Under the pieces are notes generated by a model. It saw only the letters and a program-made list of their open reading frames with translations. It did no database searches and was not told where the DNA came from. A DNA stretch of 64,000 nt from assembly GCF_024502345.1 (NCBI RefSeq), contig NZ_JALDNN010000001.1; one strand, written 5' to 3'. Below are positions 28,980 through 63,203 of this stretch, in pieces; position 1 is the first letter of the stretch; each line of letters starts with the position of its first letter. The position numbers and the translations under genes are program-made. The DNA is from Escherichia coli (GTDB lineage Bacteria; Pseudomonadota; Gammaproteobacteria; Enterobacterales; Enterobacteriaceae).

Positions 28980-29042
28980 TCGATGTGGTCAATGTGTGGA
29001 CGTGACCAGAAATAAATCCTTTTATTTCATCGTATTACGCGT

Positions 29043-30677: not shown

Positions 30678-30974
30678 TTAGCTCCAGTGTAAATGTCTGG
30701 TGGCGTCCTGGTTTTGGTTAAGGATACGAATGACGATAATTTCCCCTGGTGATTGCAGGAAATAAATTACGTGGCGTTCAAAAGGAAGAACAAAAATACC
30801 TTCGCCTAATTCAGGTCTGGGCGTACCTATATTATTGTTACTCAGAATCTGGAGAACGTCTGAAAGATGTTCCACATATCTGTCGGCTTGTGGTTCGCCG
30901 AAATGGTGATAACTGTAATACCAGATGCCTTCTAAATCCTCATTGGCTTTTGGCATGAGTTTAATAATACGCAC
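30678..30974 (-). CDS. ParE/RelE-family type II toxin (98 aa)
   Basis: About 100 aa, directly downstream of and 1 nt separated from a small RHH antitoxin-like gene; ParE-like sequence character. Confidence 0.6.
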   Translation of the reverse strand: MRIIKLMPKANEDLEGIWYYSYHHFGEPQADRYVEHLSDVLQILSNNNIGTPRPELGEGIFVLPFERHVIYFLQSPGEIIVIRILNQNQDATRHLHWS

Positions 30975-30975
30975 A

Positions 30976-31227
30976 TTATTTCCTTATCCCTGCTTTCACC
31001 TTCCGTAAAAACGCGTCCTTTTCCCACGGCTGAGCTTCACCACTACTCAACCCTTCTGCAAGCATGCCACGTAACGCTTGCAGGCGAGACTCTGCTTGCT
31101 TTTCTCGAAGTAAGCGCAGTGACTCACGGATCACTTCGCTTTGGGTGCGATAGTCGCCGGATTCAATTAAGGACTCGATAAATTCACGCAACTCATCGCC
31201 GAGATCAACCGTCATCGTTCTGGCCAT
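30976..31227 (-). CDS. ParD-like ribbon-helix-helix antitoxin (83 aa)
   Basis: 83 aa, N-terminal RHH-like segment, acidic C-terminal half; precedes the toxin. Confidence 0.6.
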   Translation of the reverse strand: MARTMTVDLGDELREFIESLIESGDYRTQSEVIRESLRLLREKQAESRLQALRGMLAEGLSSGEAQPWEKDAFLRKVKAGIRK

Positions 31228-43199: not shown

Positions 43200-43340
43200 A
43201 CGCTGAAACGGGAAAGCCCCTCCCGAGGAAGGGGCCATAAATAAGGAAAGGGTCATGATGAAGATACTCATCATCGTGGTGCTCTTAGTGATTAGCTACC
43301 CAGCATACTAAGACTACCAGGGCGGGGGAAACCCCGCTCT
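43200..43340 (-). ncRNA. Sib antisense sRNA, unit 1 (approximate boundaries)
   Basis: Sib RNAs are about 140 nt and fully antisense to ibs; the hairpin upstream of ibs on the plus strand would serve as the minus-strand terminator. Confidence 0.45.
43255..43311 (+). CDS. Ibs-family type I toxin peptide (MMKILIIVVLLVISYPAY)
   Basis: Tiny hydrophobic ORF with SD-like aaggaaaggg upstream, in repeat unit 1. Confidence 0.7.
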   Translation: MMKILIIVVLLVISYPAY

Positions 43341-43527
43341 ACCCTCACTCCTGAAAGTATGCCTTCACGTTCAGAATGTCAATCCGCAGGCTTTGCAGTC
43401 TGCGATCCTGCCAGCAAATATTCTTTGCGAGACGTTACGCAATAATCACAGAGGAAACTATTTTGTTCACGCGTTAGCGATAGACTGAATTCAGGGCGAA
43501 AGGAGGTAAGCCGACGATTTCAGCGGG

Positions 43528-43668
43528 ACGCTGAAACGGGAAAGCCCCTCCCGAGGAAGGGGCCTTAAATAAGGAAAGGGTCATGATGAAGTGGATCATC
43601 ATCGTGGTGCTCTTAGTCATAAGCTTCCCGGCTTACTAAGACTACCAGGGCGGGGGAAACCCCGCTCT
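43528..43668 (-). ncRNA. Sib antisense sRNA, unit 2 (approximate boundaries)
   Basis: As unit 1. Confidence 0.45.
43583..43639 (+). CDS. Ibs-family type I toxin peptide (MMKWIIIVVLLVISFPAY)
   Basis: Same architecture in repeat unit 2. Confidence 0.7.
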   Translation: MMKWIIIVVLLVISFPAY

Positions 43669-43855
43669 ACCCTCACTCCTGAAAGTATGCCTTCACGATA
43701 AGATTGTCAATCTGCAGGCTTTGCAGTCTGCGATCCTGCCAGCAAATATTCTTTGCGAGACGTTACGCAATAATCACACTGGAAACTATTTTATCCGCAA
43801 GTCAGCGATAGACTGCATGCATGGCGAAAGGAGGTAAGCCGACGATTTCAGCGGG

Positions 43856-43996
43856 ATGCTGAAACGGGAAAGCCCCTCCCGAGGAAGGGGCCTTAAATAA
43901 GAAAAGGGTTATGATGAAGCACGTCATCATACTGGTGATACTCTTAGTGATTAGCTTCCAGGCTTACTAAGAACACCAGGGGGAGGGGAAACCTCT
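43856..43996 (-). ncRNA. sibA: Sib antisense sRNA, unit 3 (approximate boundaries)
   Basis: As unit 1. Confidence 0.45.
43911..43970 (+). CDS. ibsA: Ibs-family type I toxin peptide (MMKHVIILVILLVISFQAY)
   Basis: Same architecture in repeat unit 3; closest to the K-12 IbsA sequence as recalled. Confidence 0.7.
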   Translation: MMKHVIILVILLVISFQAY

Positions 43997-44189: not shown

Positions 44190-44849
44190 ATGAGCGAACA
44201 AATCACGTTTGCCACCAGCGATTTTGCCAGTAACCCGGAACCACGTTGCCCCTGCATTCTGCTGCTGGATGTTTCTGGCTCGATGAGCGGCAGACCTATT
44301 AATGAACTTAACGCCGGATTGGTTACCTTTCGTGATGAACTGCTTGCTGATCCGCTGGCTTTAAAAAGAGTGGAACTCGGCATTGTGACGTTCGGCCCGG
44401 TGCATGTGGAACAACCCTTTACCAGCGCCGCTAACTTTTTCCCGCCCATCCTGTTTGCCCTGGGGGATACGCCTATGGGGGCCGCCATTACCAAAGCCCT
44501 GGATATGGTAGAGGAGCGGAAACGTGAGTACCGCGCAAATGGTATTTCGTATTATCGCCCGTGGATTTTCCTGATCACCGATGGCGCTCCAACCGATGAG
44601 TGGCAGGCTGCCGCCAACAAAGTGTTTCAGGGGGAAGAAGATAAGAAGTTTGCCTTCTTTTCCATCGGTGTTCAGGGGGCGGATATGAAGACGCTGGCAC
44701 AAATCAGCGTTCGTCAGCCTTTGCCACTGCAGGGATTACAATTCCGTGAACTGTTTAGCTGGTTATCCAGTTCGCTGCGTTCGGTTTCCCGCTCCACGCC
44801 GGGAACGGAAGTTGTGCTGGAAGCGCCAAAAGGCTGGACGTCAGTGTGA
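44190..44849 (+). CDS. yegL: von Willebrand factor A domain protein YegL (219 aa)
   Basis: 219 aa; vWA MIDAS-like DxSxS motif [11 protein letters not shown]. Confidence 0.9.
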
Positions 44850-45606
44850 GCTGGCGTCTGGTTTATGCATCCGCTGTTGGAACGTCGCACATTAGCGCTG
44901 ATTTACCTTGTCAGGATGCCTGCCAGATGCAGGTTGCCTGGCTAAATGACCAGCAGCCATTACTGGTGATGTTCCTTGCTGATGGCGCAGTAGCGTTTCG
45001 CAGGGAGGAGAAGGCGCGAAGCTCGCCGTCAATGAAGCGATGACGTTTATGGTGCAAAAAGTACAGGACGGTGAATTGGGGCTTAATGATGTCCTCGCCA
45101 CAAATATGGTACTGACCATTCGTCAACGACTTTTTGCCGAGGCAGAAGCCAAAGCATTAGCAGTTCGCGATTTTGCCTGCACGTTTCTGGGATTGATTTC
45201 ATCGGCTAACGGCACATTGATTATGCAAATTGGCGACGGCGGTGTAGTGGTGGATTTTGGTCACGGTCTGCAATTACCGCTTACGCCGATGGTGGGTGAA
45301 TATGCCAATATGACGCATTTCATTACCGATGAAGATGCCGTTTCCAGACTGGAAACTTTCACCAGCACTGAGCGTGTGCATAAAGTTGCAGCATTTACGG
45401 ATGGTATCCAGCGACTGGCGTTAAATATGTTGGATAATTCTCCGCATGTGCCTTTCTTTACCCCTTTTTTCAATGGACTGGCGGCAGCAACGCAGGAACA
45501 GCTCGATTTATTACCTGAATTGTTAAAGCAGTTTTTGTCCAGCCCGGCGGTAAACGAGCGTACCGATGATGATAAAACGTTGGCACTGGCGCTGTGGTTA
45601 CCATGA
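44846..45606 (+). pseudogene. yegK: PP2C-like phosphatase gene yegK/pphC, split by a frameshift into 65-aa and 188-aa ORFs
   Basis: ORFs 44846-45043 and 45040-45606 lie in different frames; together they span 761 nt, not a multiple of 3. Confidence 0.6.
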
Positions 45607-47543
45607 AACCCACTTTATATACTGCTACTGGTGAGTGCGTTACGCCAGGCCGTGAACTGGGCAAAGGTGGCGAAGGCGCGGTTTATGATATCAATGAGTT
45701 TGTCGATAGCGTCGCCAAGATTTATCACACGCCGCCACCCGCCTTAAAACAGGACAAACTTGCCTTTATGGCTGCGACAGCTGACGCGCAGTTGTTGAAT
45801 TATGTCGCCTGGCCGCAGGCAACGCTTCACGGTGGACGAGACGGAAAAGTTATCGGTTTTATGATGCCAAAAGTTTCTGGTAAAGAACCGATTCATATGA
45901 TCTATAGCCCGGCACATCGTCGCCAGAGTTACCCTCATTGTGCGTGGGATTTTCTACTCTATGTTGCGCGCAATATTGCTTCATCTTTTGCTACGGTTCA
46001 CGAGCACGGGCACGTCGTGGGGGACGTAAACCAGAACAGCTTTATGGTAGGTCGCGACAGCAAAGTGGTGTTGATCGATAGTGACTCCTTTCAGATTAAC
46101 GCCAATGGCACACTGCATTTATGCGAAGTCGGCGTGTCGCATTTTACGCCGCCAGAGCTACAAACCTTGCCATCATTTGTCGGTTTTGAACGTACCGCGA
46201 ATCACGATAATTTTGGCCTTGCGTTGCTGATTTTTCACGTCTTGTTTGGTGGGCGGCATCCTTATTCTGGTGTGCCGCTTATCTCTGATGCGGGTAATGC
46301 GCTGGAGACGGATATTGCCCATTTCCGTTATGCCTACGCGTCAGATAATCAGCGACGTGGTTTAAAACCGCCGCCACGATCTATTCCGCTGTCGATGTTA
46401 CCGGGCGATGTTGAAGCCATGTTTCAGCAGGCATTCACGGAAAGTGGCGTGGCAACGGGGCGTCCGACGGCTAAAGCGTGGGTAGCGGCACTGGACTCTC
46501 TACGCCAACAGTTAAAGAAATGTACCGTTTCAGCAATGCATGTTTACCCCGCTCATTTGACTGACTGCCCGTGGTGTGCGCTGGATAATCAAGGTGTTAT
46601 CTATTTTATTGATCTTGGTGAAGAGGTCATTACCACCGGCGGGGATTTTGTGCTGGCGAAAGTCTGGGCGATGGTGATGGCGTCAGTAGCACCGCCAGCA
46701 TTGCAATTGCCATTACCCGATCATTTCCAACCGACTGGCAGGCTGCTTCCTTTAGGCCTGTTACGGCGCGAATACATCATTCTGATTGAGATCGCACTGT
46801 CAGCGTTATCGCTGTTGCTTTGCGGCCTTCAGGCAGAACCGCGTTATATTATTTTGGTTCCTGTGCTGGCGGCTATCTGGATTATTGGCAGTCTGACAAG
46901 CAAAGCTTATAAAGCAGAAATCCAGCAACGCCGTGAGGCATTTAATCGCGCGAAAATGGACTATGACCATTTAGTCAGCCAGATCCAACAGTTGGGCGGG
47001 CTGGAAGGTTTTATCGCCAAACGGACGATGCTCGAAAAAATGAAGGACGAAATTCTCGGGTTACCGGAAGAAGAAAAACGTGCTCTGGCAGCACTTCACG
47101 ACACTGCAAGGGAACGGCAGAAGCAGAAGTTTCTGGAGGGATTTTTTATTGATGCTGCCTCTATTCCCGGCGTTGGCCCTGCGCGTAAAGCGGCGTTACG
47201 GTCTTTTGGTATTGAAACAGCCGCGGATGTTACCCGTCGTGGGGTTAAGCAAGTTAAAGGGTTTGGCGACCATCTGACCCAGGCGGTTATCGACTGGAAA
47301 GCGAGTTGCGAACGCCGTTTTGTGTTCAGGCCGAACGAAGCGGTAACGCCAGCAGACAGACAGGCGGTAATGGCGAAAATGGCCGCCAAACGACATCGGC
47401 TGGAAGCCGCATTGACAGAGGGCGCGACAGAGTTGCAGCGATTCCGCCTTCATGCTCCAGCACGGACCATGCCGTTGATGGAACAGTTACGTCAGGCAGC
47501 AGAAAAACTGGCTCAGGCGCAGGCAGATTTAAGCCGCTGCTGA
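45594..47543 (+). CDS. yegI: Eukaryotic-like Ser/Thr protein kinase family protein YegI (649 aa)
   Basis: 649 aa; kinase-like N-terminal region, central TM segment, C-terminal helix-hairpin-helix-like region. Confidence 0.9.
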   Translation: MVTMKPTLYTATGECVTPGRELGKGGEGAVYDINEFVDSVAKIYHTPPPALKQDKLAFMAATADAQLLNYVAWPQATLHGGRDGKVIGFMMPKVSGKEPIHMIYSPAHRRQSYPHCAWDFLLYVARNIASSFATVHEHGHVVGDVNQNSFMVGRDSKVVLIDSDSFQINANGTLHLCEVGVSHFTPPELQTLPSFVGFERTANHDNFGLALLIFHVLFGGRHPYSGVPLISDAGNALETDIAHFRYAYASDNQRRGLKPPPRSIPLSMLPGDVEAMFQQAFTESGVATGRPTAKAWVAALDSLRQQLKKCTVSAMHVYPAHLTDCPWCALDNQGVIYFIDLGEEVITTGGDFVLAKVWAMVMASVAPPALQLPLPDHFQPTGRLLPLGLLRREYIILIEIALSALSLLLCGLQAEPRYIILVPVLAAIWIIGSLTSKAYKAEIQQRREAFNRAKMDYDHLVSQIQQLGGLEGFIAKRTMLEKMKDEILGLPEEEKRALAALHDTARERQKQKFLEGFFIDAASIPGVGPARKAALRSFGIETAADVTRRGVKQVKGFGDHLTQAVIDWKASCERRFVFRPNEAVTPADRQAVMAKMAAKRHRLEAALTEGATELQRFRLHAPARTMPLMEQLRQAAEKLAQAQADLSRC

Positions 47544-49041: not shown

Positions 49042-49890
49042 ATGTATACCCTGAACTGGCAGCCGCCGTATGACTGGTCGTGGATGTTGGGATTTCTCGC
49101 CGCCCGTGCAGTGAGTGGTGTGGAAACGGTAGCTGAGGATTATTATGCCCGTAGTCTGGCGGTGGGCGAATATCGCGGCGTGGTGACTGCTATTCCGGAT
49201 ATAGCCCGCCATACTCTGCACATAAATTTAAGTGCAGGTTTAGAACCCGTTGCCGCTGAGTGTCTGGCGAAAATGAGCCGCCTGTTTGATCTGCAATGTA
49301 ACCCGCAGATTGTTAACGGTGCGTTGGGCAAGTTAGGCGCGGCGCGGCCCGGATTGCGTTTACCCGGCTGTATTGATGCTTTTGAGCAGGGTGTGCGGGC
49401 GATTTTAGGCCAACTGGTGAGCGTGGCGATGGCGGCAAAATTGACTGCCAAAGTTGTACAGCTTTATGGCGAACGGCTGGATGATTTTCCGGAGTATATC
49501 TGCTTCCCCACGCCTCAGCGGCTGGCAGCAGCCGACCCGCAGGCATTAAAAGCGTTAGGCATGCCGTTGAAACGGGCAGAGGCACTGATTCATCTGGCAA
49601 ATGCGGCGCTGGAGGGCAGCTTACCAATGACAATTCCGGGCGATGTGGAGCAGGCGATGAAAACGCTGCAAACTTTTCCGGGTATCGGGCGCTGGACGGC
49701 GAATTATTTCGCTTTGCGTGGCTGGCAGGCGAAAGATGTTTTCCTGCCGGATGATTATCTGATTAAACAGCGGTTTCCGGGAATGACACCAGCACAAATC
49801 CGCCGTTATGCCGAACGCTGGAAGCCCTGGCGTTCTTATGCGCTGTTGCATATCTGGTATACGGAAGGCTGGCAACCAGACGAAGCATGA
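49042..49890 (+). CDS. alkA: 3-methyladenine DNA glycosylase II AlkA (282 aa)
   Basis: 282 aa; helix-hairpin-helix glycosylase signature near FPGIGRWTANYFALRG. Confidence 0.95.
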   Translation: MYTLNWQPPYDWSWMLGFLAARAVSGVETVAEDYYARSLAVGEYRGVVTAIPDIARHTLHINLSAGLEPVAAECLAKMSRLFDLQCNPQIVNGALGKLGAARPGLRLPGCIDAFEQGVRAILGQLVSVAMAAKLTAKVVQLYGERLDDFPEYICFPTPQRLAAADPQALKALGMPLKRAEALIHLANAALEGSLPMTIPGDVEQAMKTLQTFPGIGRWTANYFALRGWQAKDVFLPDDYLIKQRFPGMTPAQIRRYAERWKPWRSYALLHIWYTEGWQPDEA

Positions 49891-49998: not shown

Positions 49999-52900
49999 TC
50001 AGTTAATCGCGAAATAACTGCTATTCACCAGCAAATCCAGCGGTTGGGAATCGGCAATCACATCACCATAAATCAGATCGACGCCGATGCCAGAAAGCGT
50101 ATCCATCACTAAGGGTAAAACGACTGGCCCGGCGATGGTTTTCATCCCGAGTCGCTGAGCGTGCCCCTGAATAATCGTAATCAGCATCTCATCCATCAAA
50201 TTACCCTGCACGTTGGCGCATAACTCACCATCAAGTAGCAGGTAATCTGCCATATTCGCTTTCAGCGAGTTGAAGATTTGCAGATCGCGGCCCACCTGGC
50301 TGAGCACTATCCGACATCCCGCCAGCCGCAGTTTTTGCACGCTTACTGCGTGATCTAAAATCGCTTCAGCCGGAATAATCAGATGTAATAACCGTGGTGG
50401 TAGAGGGCTATTTTCCAGCTGCTCAAGCAGTTCATTCACCAGCGTGGCGCTACTCAAACCGGCAACGGAAAGAGGGAGGGCGATGCTTATGCCTTTACTG
50501 GCAACCGCTTTTGCGGCCTGCTGGAAAAATTCGTGGAATACCCGTCGGTCAAGAGCATGGCTAAGTGCCGGATCGCTGAAGCTACGACGAAATTTTTGTT
50601 CATCAATAATCTCGCCTTCGCAACTCCAGAGCTTAAGTGAAATCAGCCACAAATTACGCGCTTCCGGGATCCGCGGCGAAGCGACACCGTGGGCGATCAT
50701 CATCAACTGATTCTCTTTAATCATCCGCCACTGTTCATCAAGCGACATCGCCGCCCGTTCGCTATGTGCGGCAGCTTGCTGTGGTTCGTAAATCGTCACC
50801 CGGCCCCGGCCACCATTTTTGGAGGCATAACAGGCGATATCAGCCTGCGACATCACTTCAGCCGCCTGATGATTGTTGTCATCAATCAAGGTAATCCCGG
50901 CACTGGCACCTACCCGATGTACACGTCCTTCCCAGATAAAGTGATAGTCATTCACGGCACTGATAATGCGTGTAGCGATAAAACGCGCGCTTTCAACATT
51001 ACAGTCTGGTAGCAGCAGACCAAATTCATCCCCACCGAGTCGCGCCAGCACGTCGCTGGAACGCAGCATACTCAGCATTAACGACGCCAGTTCGCGCAGC
51101 AAAGCGTCACCCGCCGCATGCCCGGCGCTGTCATTCACCGCTTTAAAGCGATCAAGATCGATAAACACCAGGGCATGTCGCTGATGTGTACTGTTTACCG
51201 TTTGCAGCAGGATACGCAGTTGTTTCTCAAAACTGGCGCGATTGGCGAGATGCGTCAGTGCATCATGGGAGGCGCTGTAGCTCAGCTGGCGCAGCATTTT
51301 GCGTGATTCGGTAACGTCCTGAATCACCAGAACCGAACCAATATTGCTGCCGTCCAGAGTACTTAACGGCGTAATACTGTAATGCACGTCGTAGCTGCCG
51401 CCGCTCCGGCAGTGCAACACCACATCTTGTTCAATCGCGGAACGTGAGGTGTCGGCACTGTAAATGTTCTCCATCAGGGGACCATTGTCGCCAAAGGTAA
51501 TATGCAACACCGTCAGGAGCGGAACACCTAATGCTTCTTCCTGCGTCCAGCCGCTCATCTTCTCCGCCACTGGATTCATAAAGGTAATTTTCATTGCCAT
51601 ATCAATACAGACCACGGCTTCGCCGATGGAGTCCAGCGTAATGTGCAGGCGCTCTTTTTCCTAAAACAATGCCTCGTTAAGCTGTTTCACTTCGGTCATA
51701 TCCATATTGATGCCGAGGAGACGTTCGACTTCGCCTTCTTTATTCAGTACCCGGTTGGCGAGGGCGCGGATATGGCGAATACCGTCTTTTACGGTAATGC
51801 GAAATTCCAGTTTAAAGGGCGAGCGTGATTGCAACGAATCACGAATCACTTTTTCGGCATGCTGGCGATCTTCCGGCAGCACGCACTCGTACCACACCTG
51901 CCAGTTCGGTTTGATATGTGGAGGAATTTCATACAGCTCGAACATCCGCTTATCCCAGCTAAAAACATTCGGTTTCAACTCCCACTCCCAGATGCCAATC
52001 CCGCCCGCTTCGTTAGACAGCGTGATGCGCTCCATCAGTTGCTGATTGACCTGTTCGGTGCGTTTTAGCTCGTTAATGTCTTCAATCTGAGCGATAAAAT
52101 AGAGCGGCGTGCCATCCGTGTGGCGCACCAGTGAGACGGCAAGCAACGCCCAGACAACATCGCCATTGCGGTTGTAGTAGCGTTTTTCCATTGAATAGGT
52201 GTTTATTTCACCGCTTATCAGCTTTTCAACCTGTTGGAGATCTTTATTGAGATCCTCCGGCCAGGTCAGTTGCTGAAAGGTGAGTCCGCGCAGCTCTTCC
52301 TGACTGTACCCGAGAAACTGGCAGAGCGCTTTGTTGGTTTGCAGCCATTGTCCCTCGGTGCCCACTAACGCCATACCGATAGCGGAATATTCCATCGCGT
52401 TCCGAAAGCGGGTTTCGCTTTCGGAAATGTGTTTGCGTTCCGCACGAAAGGCATACATCACCATGGTCATGATGTTGGCGGGCAGCAGGATCAGCAAAAA
52501 CGGTAGCCACGGCATATGGCTCATCAGGTACGTACGCGGCGTAGCAAGCAGGGAGGGATCCGCGGCCATCATCAGCGACACCATCATCACCGTGGTAAGG
52601 AAGATCAAAAAGGCTTCCATTCGTGGCAGGCGCACGGCGCTCCACATCAACAGCACAATAATGAAAGTAAAAGGCCACGGCAGATACAGCATCGAAAGCC
52701 AGCTTAACGTCAGTGTGATGGCTAACGTGAGCAGCGACTCAAAAAGCAACCGTGGGTTGCGATGGCGCAGCAGATAGTGTGGTTTAAATAACAATCCCAG
52801 CGGCACCAGTGCCAGAGCGCCGATGGATTCTGACAGTACCCATATCAAAAATGCCCTGAGAGGATCGTCTCCGGGCGTCAGCAGGACAACCAGACCCCCC

Positions 52901-53316
52901 CCCAACAGAGGCGGAACAATGGCGCTGCCGAGTGCCAGACGCAGCCAGTCAGCCAGATTTTGCAAGGGGTTATACCACGGCAGCAATTTACGTAGCAGCA
53001 CTGCCCCGACCACGGCTTCAACCATATTGATGGTCGTCCAGGTCATGTTCAGCGAGCTGGTGGAAAAAAGCAGGATGGATGCGGCGATATTTCCCAGCGA
53101 ACAGCTCAGCGCAATTCCCGGCCACATGCGCCCGGCATGGCGATAAAACGCCACCATCATGATGGACGTCGGGAACCACAGTGGGGCGAGTTGGGTGCCA
53201 AACTGCGAAAGCTCAAGCGAGAAAAGGGTAAAGATAAACGAGACTAAACCTAAACTGACCAGGTGAAGCAGCGGGTGGGGCAGGGCAATTAATACATGCT
53301 GTGATTGTTTGCTCAT
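49999..53316 (-). pseudogene. dgcE: Diguanylate cyclase DgcE (YegE) reading frame, interrupted by one in-frame amber (TAG) codon
   Basis: Minus-strand ORFs 51661-53316 (551 aa: membrane N-terminus and PAS) and 49999-51615 (538 aa: PAS, GGDEF with RLGGDEFGLLL, EAL) are in the same frame; only stop between them is TAG at 51661-51663; 551+1+15+538 = 1105 codons. Confidence 0.7.
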
Positions 53317-53633
53317 TACCGCTTTATCCGCAAGACCAGGTCGCCAGTATTCGTTTCTGTGTTTATGCTAGTACAAAAGTTTTACATTTTATATGCGAAT
53401 TGCTCATAAAGTGACGTAAAGGCGGATAATTTGCGCAACTGCGTATAACATTTTTTACCTTACATAAAACTGATCAACGTAATTTGCCACCGGGAATTCT
53501 TTGTCAACAATTAACTCTGAGCGCGCGGCAACGCTATTCGACTGGTATCAGACGGATGAAATCCCTATAATTGCCGCGTTTGGCGCTTCGTCGCCCCCTT
53601 CCTAACATCCAGGTTAATCAGGTCGCTAAATAT

Positions 53634-54275
53634 ATGACTGATCAGTCTCATCAGTGCGTCATTATCGGTATCGCTGGCGCATCGGCTTCCGGCAAGAGTC
53701 TTATTGCCAGTACCCTTTATCGTGAATTACGTGAGCAAGTCGGTGATGAACACATCGGCGTAATTCCCGAAGACTGCTATTACAAAGATCAAAGCCATCT
53801 GTCGATGGAAGAACGCGTTAAGACCAACTACGACCATCCCAGCGCGATGGATCACAGCCTGTTGCTTGAGCATTTACAAGCGTTGAAACGCGGCTCGGCA
53901 ATTGACCTGCCGGTTTACAGCTATGTTGAACATACGCGTATGAAAGAAACGGTGACGGTTGAGCCGAAGAAGGTCATCATTCTCGAAGGCATTTTATTGC
54001 TGACGGATGCGCGTTTGCGTGACGAACTTAACTTCTCCATTTTCGTTGATACCCCGCTGGATATCTGCCTGATGCGCCGCATCAAGCGTGACGTTAACGA
54101 GCGTGGGCGTTCAATGGATTCCGTGATGGCGCAATATCAAAAAACCGTGCGCCCGATGTTCCTGCAATTCATTGAGCCTTCTAAACAATATGCGGACATT
54201 ATCGTGCCGCGCGGCGGGAAAAACCGCATCGCGATCGATATATTGAAAGCGAAAATAAGTCAGTTCTTTGAATAA
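53634..54275 (+). CDS. udk: Uridine/cytidine kinase Udk (213 aa)
   Basis: Start at [22 protein letters not shown] with P-loop; 213 aa. Confidence 0.95.
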
Positions 54276-54366
54276 GCTTGATAAATTGTGTACCGTTCAG
54301 TGATAACCTGGTATGCCCTTGACGTAATTGGCGTTAAGGGAGTGATGCGCGAAAGGAGAAAATGCC

Positions 54367-54948
54367 ATGCGTCTGTGTGACCGAGATATTGAAGCCTGGC
54401 TTGATGAAGGCCGTTTGTCGATCAACCCACGTCCGCCAGTGGAGCGTATTAACGGCGCGACGGTGGATGTACGCCTGGGCAATAAATTTCGTACCTTCCG
54501 TGGTCACACGGCAGCGTTTATCGATCTGAGCGGTCCCAAAGATGAAGTGAGCGCCGCGCTTGACCGCGTGATGAGCGATGAGATCGTTCTCGACGAGGGC
54601 GAGGCGTTCTATCTTCACCCAGGAGAGCTGGCGCTGGCGGTGACGCTGGAGTCGGTGACGCTGCCAGCCGATCTGGTGGGCTGGCTGGACGGGCGTTCCT
54701 CTTTGGCGCGTCTGGGGCTGATGGTGCACGTCACCGCGCACCGTATCGATCCGGGCTGGTCTGGTTGCATTGTGCTGGAGTTCTACAACTCCGGTAAGCT
54801 GCCGCTGGCGCTGCGTCCGGGCATGTTAATTGGTGCGCTGAGCTTTGAGCCGCTTTCCGGCCCGGCGGCGCGACCTTACAACCGCCGTGAAGATGCGAAA
54901 TATCGCAACCAGCAGGGCGCGGTAGCCAGCCGAATCGATAAAGACTAA
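54367..54948 (+). CDS. dcd: dCTP deaminase Dcd (193 aa)
   Basis: [24 protein letters not shown]-terminus; 193 aa. Confidence 0.95.
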
Positions 54949-54969
54949 TTCAGGCCCATTGAGGATACC

Positions 54970-56823
54970 ATGAGACGATTTCTGACGACGCTGATGATAC
55001 TCCTGGTCGTGCTGGTGGCCGGGTTATCTGCGTTAGTGTTGCTGGTGAATCCGAATGATTTCCGCGACTATATGGTCAAGCAAGTTGCTGCACGTAGCGG
55101 TTATCAATTGCAGCTCGACGGGCCACTGCGTTGGCACGTCTGGCCGCAGCTTAGTATCCTCTCCGGGCGAATGTCTCTCACCGCCCAGGGCGCAAGCCAG
55201 CCACTGGTTCGCGCCGACAACATGCGTCTGGACGTGGCGCTTTTACCACTACTGAGTCATCAACTGAGCGTTAAGCAGGTGATGCTAAAAGGGGCAGTGA
55301 TCCAACTGACGCCGCAGACGGAAGCGGTGCGCAGTGAAGACGCTCCGGTTGCACCGCGCGACAATACCTTGCCGGATCTGTCAGACGATCGCGGATGGTC
55401 GTTTGATATATCCAGTCTTAAGGTGGCGGACAGCGTGCTGGTGTTCCAGCATGAAGATGACGAGCAGGTGACAATCCGCAATATTCGCCTGCAAATGGAA
55501 CAAGATCCCCAACATCGTGGTTCATTTGAGTTCTCCGGGAGGGTTAATCGCGATCAGCGCGATCTCACGATATCCCTTAACGGTACGGTAGATGCTTCTG
55601 ATTATCCGCATGATTTAACGGCGGCTATTGAACAAATTAACTGGCAGTTGCAGGGTGCAGATTTACCAAAACAAGGTATTCATGGGCAGGGGAGTTTCCA
55701 GGCCCAGTGGCAGGAGTCACATAAACGCCTTTCATTTAACCAAATCAGCTTGACCGCCAATGACAGCACGCTGAGCGGGCAAGCACAGGTCACGCTGACA
55801 GAGAAACCTGAATGGCAGCTGAGACTGCAATTCCCGCAACTGAATCTTGACAACCTCATCCCGCTTAATGAAACCGCTAATGGTGAAAACGGTGCCGCGC
55901 AGCAGGGGCAGAGCCAATCAACGTTGCCGCGCCCGGTTATTTCTTCGCGTATTGATGAACCGGCCTATCAGGGACTGCAAGGCTTTACGGCTGATATTTT
56001 GTTGCAGGCCAGTAACGTGCGCTGGCGCGGAATGAATTTTACAGATGTTGCCACGCAAATGACCAACAAGTCGGGTTTGCTGGAAATTACTCAACTGCAG
56101 GGCAAGCTTAACGGTGGACAGGTTTCACTGCCGGGCACGCTGGACGCGACATCAATAAATCCGCGGATAAACTTCCAGCCACGGCTGGAGAACGTTGAGA
56201 TTGGTACCATTCTGAAGGCGTTTAACTATCCGATTTCGTTGACCGGAAAGATGTCACTGGCTGGTGATTTCTCCGGTGCTGACATAGATGCCGACGCATT
56301 CCGCCACAACTGGCAAGGACAGGCACATGTCGAAATGACCGACACGCGCATGGAAGGGATGAACTTCCAGCAGATGATTCAGCAAGCGGTAGAACGTAAT
56401 GGTGGTGATGTGAAGGCCGCTGAAAACTTCGATAACGTAACGCGTCTTGACCGCTTTACCACCGATTTGACGTTGAAGGATGGCGTCGTGACGTTAAACG
56501 ACATGCAAGGTCAATCGCCTGTGCTGGCGCTGACAGGGGAAGGCATGTTGAATCTGGCAGATCAAACCTGCGACACCCAGTTTGATATTCGGGTCGTGGG
56601 TGGCTGGAGCGGGGAAAGCAAACTGATTGATTTCCTCAAAGAAACGCCAGTACCGCTGCGGGTTTATGGCAACTGGCAGCAACTCAATTACAGCCTGCAG
56701 GTGGATCAGTTACTGCGCAAACATCTACAGGACGAAGCGAAACGTCGCCTGAATGACTGGGCCGAGCGGAATAAAGATTCCCGCAATGGCAAAGATGTGA
56801 AGAAGTTGCTGGAGAAGATGTAG
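54970..56823 (+). CDS. asmA: Outer-membrane assembly protein AsmA (617 aa)
   Basis: 617 aa, N-terminal TM anchor, follows dcd. Confidence 0.95.
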   Translation: MRRFLTTLMILLVVLVAGLSALVLLVNPNDFRDYMVKQVAARSGYQLQLDGPLRWHVWPQLSILSGRMSLTAQGASQPLVRADNMRLDVALLPLLSHQLSVKQVMLKGAVIQLTPQTEAVRSEDAPVAPRDNTLPDLSDDRGWSFDISSLKVADSVLVFQHEDDEQVTIRNIRLQMEQDPQHRGSFEFSGRVNRDQRDLTISLNGTVDASDYPHDLTAAIEQINWQLQGADLPKQGIHGQGSFQAQWQESHKRLSFNQISLTANDSTLSGQAQVTLTEKPEWQLRLQFPQLNLDNLIPLNETANGENGAAQQGQSQSTLPRPVISSRIDEPAYQGLQGFTADILLQASNVRWRGMNFTDVATQMTNKSGLLEITQLQGKLNGGQVSLPGTLDATSINPRINFQPRLENVEIGTILKAFNYPISLTGKMSLAGDFSGADIDADAFRHNWQGQAHVEMTDTRMEGMNFQQMIQQAVERNGGDVKAAENFDNVTRLDRFTTDLTLKDGVVTLNDMQGQSPVLALTGEGMLNLADQTCDTQFDIRVVGGWSGESKLIDFLKETPVPLRVYGNWQQLNYSLQVDQLLRKHLQDEAKRRLNDWAERNKDSRNGKDVKKLLEKM

Positions 56824-63111: not shown

Positions 63112-63115
63112 CGAC

Positions 63116-63176
63116 GCCTGCATTCGCACCGCCCCGTAGGCCGGATAAGGCGCTCACGCCGCATCCGGCAAGCAAA
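63116..63176. repeat. REP palindromic element between wzc and wcaA
   Basis: gcctgcattcgcaccgccccgtaggccggataaggcgctcacgccgcatccggcaagc. Confidence 0.7.
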
Positions 63177-63203
63177 CCAGCTCATAAGCCGGGAGAACAA
63201 CCT

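Follow-up and report, generated by a model that had tools for sequence, protein, structure and literature searches.

In the Escherichia coli genome analysed here, the pphC (yegK) gene has lost one G, and is very probably a genuine, vertically inherited -1 frameshift pseudogene shared by a small E. coli clade. The window under study is the whole stretch of 64,000 nucleotides taken from contig NZ_JALDNN010000001.1 (assembly GCF_024502345.1). The gene has already been characterised, public assemblies already contain the allele, and the lesion is a case of ordinary gene decay, with no new mechanism or feature.

The yegL-pphC-yegI locus

In a sequence search of 5,426 complete genomes of E. coli, pphC was detected in 5,413. 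Intact alleles, including the best matches among complete genomes, measure 762 nt and encode 253 aa, which is the length of the full-length PphC described earlier (10.1101/303594). In the window the gene (44846-45606, plus strand) is 761 nt long, a length that leaves a remainder of 2 when divided by three, and its original frame is interrupted by 10 internal stops. The first-pass annotation had identified the locus as yegK, alias pphC, coding for a PP2C-like phosphatase of 253 aa when intact, and both the intact alleles and the Pfam profiles match this identity. It had also described two ORFs in different frames, spanning together 761 nt, and both are found. ORF1 (44846-45043, plus strand) starts with GTG and encodes 65 aa, corresponding to PphC residues 1-48 followed by 17 out-of-frame residues. 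ORF2 (45040-45606, plus strand) starts with ATG and encodes 188 aa, corresponding to the native residues 66-253.

The flanking genes are intact. The upstream gene yegL (44190-44849, plus strand; 660 nt, no internal stops) encodes a TerY-like vWA-domain protein of 219 aa, which matches the VWA family PF00092 with 39.1 bits, and the exact YegL protein is on record in 283 contigs. Downstream, yegI (45603-47543, plus strand; exact protein P0031) encodes a eukaryotic-like Ser/Thr kinase of 646 aa with a HhH-like C-terminal region. The order yegL, pphC, yegI proposed in the first-pass annotation is the one observed, and each junction is a 4-nt overlap: the yegL stop overlaps the pphC start in GTGA, and the ATG start of yegI overlaps the pphC stop in ATGA.

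Alignment to the closest intact allele, that of E. coli F9792 (L001:3001-3762), places the indel. The two sequences differ at a single point, one G missing from a GG pair in codon 49 (44989-44990, plus strand; gene nt 145/146), and the 1-nt frame change that had been predicted somewhere in the interval 44990-45045 thus falls at its very start. The context GCAGGTAGC has become GCAGTAGC, and GCA GGT AGC, where GGT is codon 49, has become GCA GTA GC. The deletion sits in a 2-base run, with no long homopolymer at the site, three codons past D46, the metal-binding Asp of motif II. Adding back one G yields a 253-aa frame whose DNA matches the F9792 allele exactly, and shows about 92% identity to that of the K-12 gene. 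The 17 residues which follow residue 48 in ORF1 (VAFRREEKARSSPSMKR) end at a premature TGA at 45041-45043. This stop and the native, in-frame codon for Met66 overlap, and the resulting ATGA (45040-45043, plus strand) is a candidate termination-reinitiation point.

Distribution of the deletion allele

Five further independent records in public collections carry the identical deletion; three are NCBI assemblies, the other two Logan assemblies obtained from separate SRA runs. The 188-aa product P0001 is encoded in GCA_050022275.1 (L005/L010; the product is encoded in L005) and in Logan SRR24000611 (L006) and SRR33420591 (L007), and the exact YegI protein of the window is found in GCA_054852445.1 (L008) and GCA_001484235.1 (LLYD01; L012). 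The last assembly is that of ccpm3962, a commensal isolate from a healthy preschooler (PMC7133007). Over the 3,354-nt yegL-yegI block the five records show 0-1 mismatches and no gaps relative to the window. Downstream of the break all the deletion-bearing copies are identical, and relaxed selection following the frameshift is therefore not yet visible.

Four sister alleles (L009, L011, L013 and L014), 0-2 substitutions away (99.9% identity), retain GG; GCA_049547745.1 and ERZ7981942 are among the GG sister genomes. The deletion is absent from all the 1,491 complete genomes matching a 61-mer that spans the site, which all feature GG; this test reached only complete genomes carrying an allele close enough, and the best identity, 98.4%, is the one-gap value. 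The GG found in both the sister alleles and the matching RefSeq complete genomes implies a derived deletion, restricted to a small clade. Over 24 kb, complete RefSeq E. coli genomes are at most 98.2% identical to the window.

At least three genotypes can be told apart among the carriers: the window, the type represented by L005, L008 and L012, and L006, which has extra SNPs. The window and L005 differ by 14 substitutions and no gaps over 20,567 nt, and the substitutions at 49131, 50049 and 51663 are private to the window. L005, L008 and L012 are mutually identical across the compared range, and may thus represent one widespread clone rather than three lines of descent. Among the 24 full-length genes syntenic with NCTC10444 (29.2-63.1 kb of the window), pphC is the only one bearing an indel.

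Consequences for the protein

Biochemical work has shown that PphC acts as an atypical PP2C-like phosphatase, which depends on Mn2+ and is able to dephosphorylate in vitro the autophosphorylated kinase YegI; D46 in motif II is essential, and the D46N mutant is inactive but folded (10.1101/303594). The intact protein matches the Pfam family PF13672 (PP2C_2) with 167.5 bits (cutoff 24) over residues 11-220. Both products of the broken gene still score above this cutoff, ORF1 with 28.7 bits at profile positions 1-34 only, ORF2 with 105.2 bits at positions 64-204. ORF1 keeps motifs I-II, including D46; ORF2 has motifs III-XI and is devoid of motifs I-II. The metal-binding motifs of PP2C enzymes are thus split across two frames, and are not joined in one continuous polypeptide. 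Since the domain is cut between motifs II and III, neither product carries all the metal-binding residues, and the sequence strongly argues that the deletion allele has lost phosphatase activity. The ATG at 45040 is the start chosen by gene callers, and the exact 188-aa product of ORF2 is on record as P0001; neither the exact 65-aa product of ORF1 nor a 185-aa alternative-start form of ORF2 was found among recorded proteins. Intact PphC had no match among PDB chains at E <= 1.

Predicted consequences for the operon

Ribosomes entering at the native GTG would translate 48 native codons, then another 17 out of frame, and halt at the TGA at 45041-45043. Predicted pairing with the anti-SD sequence is -5.4 kcal/mol for yegL and -5.6 kcal/mol for the pphC GTG; for the yegI ATG it is -2.2 kcal/mol (median of the 451 ATGs tested, -2.6). 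The weak SD of yegI, and the overlap of its start with the pphC stop, suggest that translation of yegI probably relies on coupling to pphC. In the deletion allele yegI translation would probably be lowered as this coupling is lost. An exception would be provided by ribosomes reinitiating at the ATG within the new ATGA, which would translate the 188-aa fragment and so arrive at the start of yegI; the predicted pairing at ATG 45040 is -0.2 kcal/mol, and reinitiation there is therefore likely inefficient. Rho-dependent polarity on yegI is possible but unsupported; the 559 nt potentially left untranslated (45044-45602) have a C/G ratio of 0.83, and are not C-rich. The ATGA overlap has been noted before, and expression of yegI reported as very low and of the stationary phase (10.1101/819920).

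YegI would also lose its cognate phosphatase. The first-pass annotation had suggested that loss of pphC would unbalance the YegL/YegI module, a reasonable view in the light of the in vitro activity of PphC on YegI. YegI might end up hyperphosphorylated, or might simply be under-produced.

Other pphC lesions in E. coli

When 60 of the 5,414 matching complete-genome records were sampled at even spacing, three had a pphC annotated as a pseudogene. Strains 51243816-SK1A and NRZ94505 (L015, L016) carry an extra A at nt 477; in strain EP91B (L017) an IS1 element has inserted after approximately nt 435. In addition, OkiPb01695 (L002), which ranks among the closest matches to the window, has four instead of five A residues at nt 212-216. 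In all these strains yegL and yegI are annotated as intact, as in the window, but the pphC lesions differ in kind from the GG to G change, and are thus independent events. The recurrence of lesions (about 3/60 sampled complete genomes) suggests that the yegL-pphC-yegI operon undergoes sporadic, independent decay, and that under common conditions the cell can do without the phosphatase. Since pphC has been independently broken in other lineages, and reported expression of the operon is very low, loss of pphC would most likely be neutral or nearly so.

Relatives with an intact pphC carry 1-nt deletions nearby. One falls in yegL of F9792 (L001 2347-3004); L014 (SRR18491079) has two, in yegL and yegD, at window-equivalent positions 44630 and 47720. 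These may be either further instances of operon decay or the mark of lower-quality assemblies.

Alternative explanations

Inactivation of the phosphatase might have been selected, leaving a TerY-P-like YegL/YegI module permanently phosphorylated, and hence "on". In keeping with this, yegL and yegI are intact, their protein sequences are unchanged across the clade, pphC has been hit repeatedly in separate lineages, and TerY-P-like modules can act in phage defence (PMC11090510). Adaptive loss is nevertheless unlikely. The clade is small, and none of the 5,426 complete RefSeq genomes belongs to it; yegL is lesioned as well in relatives (F9792, L014), a pattern resembling unbiased decay of the operon; YegL and PphC match no PADLOC defence model; expression of yegI is very low, and lost coupling may reduce, rather than increase, the output of YegI. 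It is quite unlikely that the loss is non-neutral, in the sense that it rewires the YegL-YegI module and that recurrent lesions reflect selection. Were this the case, the membrane kinase YegI could be locked in its autophosphorylated state. Alternatively, the ATGA could keep ribosomes reaching yegI, and the dead 188-aa PphC fragment could still bind YegI.

A split but functional enzyme could be envisaged, if termination-reinitiation at the ATGA gave rise to both fragments, and these associated into an active PP2C. The overlap between the new stop and Met66 mirrors the native overlap between the pphC stop and the yegI start, gene callers select the ATG at 45040, and between them the two fragments hold residues 1-48 and 66-253. 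However, residues 49-65, which include the rest of motif II (DGxGS...), have been swapped for 17 unrelated residues, and SD pairing is virtually nil upstream of the ATG (-0.2 kcal/mol). Fragment complementation is not known to occur in the PP2C family, and the unrelated pphC lesions of other lineages are consistent with plain loss. Overall, an active split enzyme is highly improbable.

The first-pass annotation had considered both a genuine mutation and a sequencing indel. Among assembly errors single-base indels are the most frequent, and the true genome could in principle have GG and an intact 253-codon pphC. Such an error is extremely improbable, and was rejected. The site is a 2-base run rather than a long homopolymer; GG is read in near-identical sister strains; the same deletion recurs in five independent records, two of which are Logan re-assemblies; no indel separates the window from L005 in 20.5 kb, and no other gene is frame-broken among the 24 compared.

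Recoding, by which slippage of transcription or programmed +1 frameshifting of the ribosome would restore full-length PphC from the 761-nt gene, is barely conceivable and was rejected as well. A rare AGG codon and the SD-like GGGAGGAG (45001-45013) lie past the deletion and ahead of the new stop, and elements of this sort stimulate +1 shifts in other genes. However, neither a slippery homopolymer nor a shift site of the prfB type is present at or past the deletion, the change is a mere GG to G in GCAGGTAGC with no conserved slippery site, relatives are single-frame, with a plain GG in all the 1,491 complete E. coli genomes matching the 61-mer, and the allele derives so recently from the intact gene kept by the sisters that a signal had neither time nor need to arise.

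Other features of the window

A second signalling gene is inactivated less than 7 kb from pphC. The diguanylate cyclase gene dgcE (yegE; 49999-53316, minus strand) carries a nonsense mutation, Q552* (CAG to TAG; codon 552 at 51661-51663), which is private to the window, position 51663 being G in the close relatives L005 and L006. In L006 dgcE has a different lesion, a 1-nt deletion at window position 52895. The truncated 551-aa DgcE product was not found among recorded proteins. Mass gene decay of the Shigella type was considered and rejected, as only 2/24 genes are broken, pphC by an indel and dgcE by a nonsense mutation, and the syntenic part is free of IS elements.

Positions 1-29034, just upstream of yegQ, are occupied by a P2-like (Peduovirus) prophage. 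The window starts inside this element, in a homologue of the replication gene A, and the prophage is 96.8% identical to phages R18C and fiAA91-ss across 75-77% of the first 25 kb. Synteny with NCTC10444 begins only at 29035. Between yegQ and yegP (30678-31227, minus strand) resides a gene for a RelE/ParE-family toxin of 98 aa, adjacent to an 83-aa ORF for a ParD-like antitoxin, open in the window and annotated as frameshifted in NCTC10444. Three tandem genes for Ibs-type type I toxins (57, 57 and 60 nt), set in repeats of about 330 bp, are found between mdtA and yegL (43255-43970). Their copy number varies, two being annotated in L002 and L017, and two called in L011.

In the udk-dcd-asmA region (53462-55569) 11 substitutions separate the window from L005 and L006 in 2.1 kb, compared with 3 over the 18 kb before it. 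Such a jump in substitution density suggests that a recombination tract has a boundary near 53.4 kb. The alignment to NCTC10444 is interrupted between wzc and wcaA (63115-63189), the reference having about 85 extra bases, and the difference probably corresponds to a variable intergenic repeat element.

Use of the allele

The locus is best labelled as a pphC pseudogene with a frameshift at codon 49, rather than as two hypothetical ORFs or an assembly error. The deletion sets apart a small clade of E. coli, and may be exploited as a lineage marker. The carriers also offer a natural background lacking pphC and retaining yegL and yegI, along with near-isogenic sisters with GG, in which the YegI/PphC pair, still poorly understood, could be studied for its part in Ser/Thr phosphorylation.

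Comparison with known systems

The TerY-P triad is a proposed phosphorylation switch, variants of which act in phage defence (PMC11090510). As defined by Anantharaman et al. 2012 (cited in PMC11090510), the triad has the same order as the genes of the window, a vWA protein (YegL), a PP2C phosphatase (PphC) and a Ser/Thr kinase (YegI), and the three are indeed adjacent here (vWA, 39.1 bits; PP2C_2; the YegI kinase). Membership of yegL-pphC-yegI in the TerY-P group is only architectural. YegI has no Pfam kinase match in the profile search, and is known as a eukaryotic-like Ser/Thr kinase from experiments (10.1101/819920). The TerY-P kinase has a C-terminal zinc ribbon, replaced by an OB fold in defence variants; neither family was detected by the profile search at the C-terminus of YegI, which has instead a weak HhH-like match (HHH_5, residues 515-550), below threshold with 18.5 bits against a cutoff of 27. 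In PADLOC-DB v2 no family was matched by PphC and YegL at E <= 0.01, and YegI gave weak, generic kinase-domain matches only (PD-T4-6, 1.5e-4). Unlike TerY-P loci, that of the window lies outside any tellurite-resistance or defence context, and its phosphatase member is a pseudogene.

The operon has the layout of B-strain and pathogen type, in which pphC and yegI overlap in ATGA, whereas in K-12 yegJ is interposed between the two. Relative to the PphC characterised earlier (10.1101/303594), the gene, the locus, the start and the stop are shared, and D46 and motifs I-XI are all still encoded in the window, in a frame broken at codon 49 and a domain split into residues 1-48 and 66-253.
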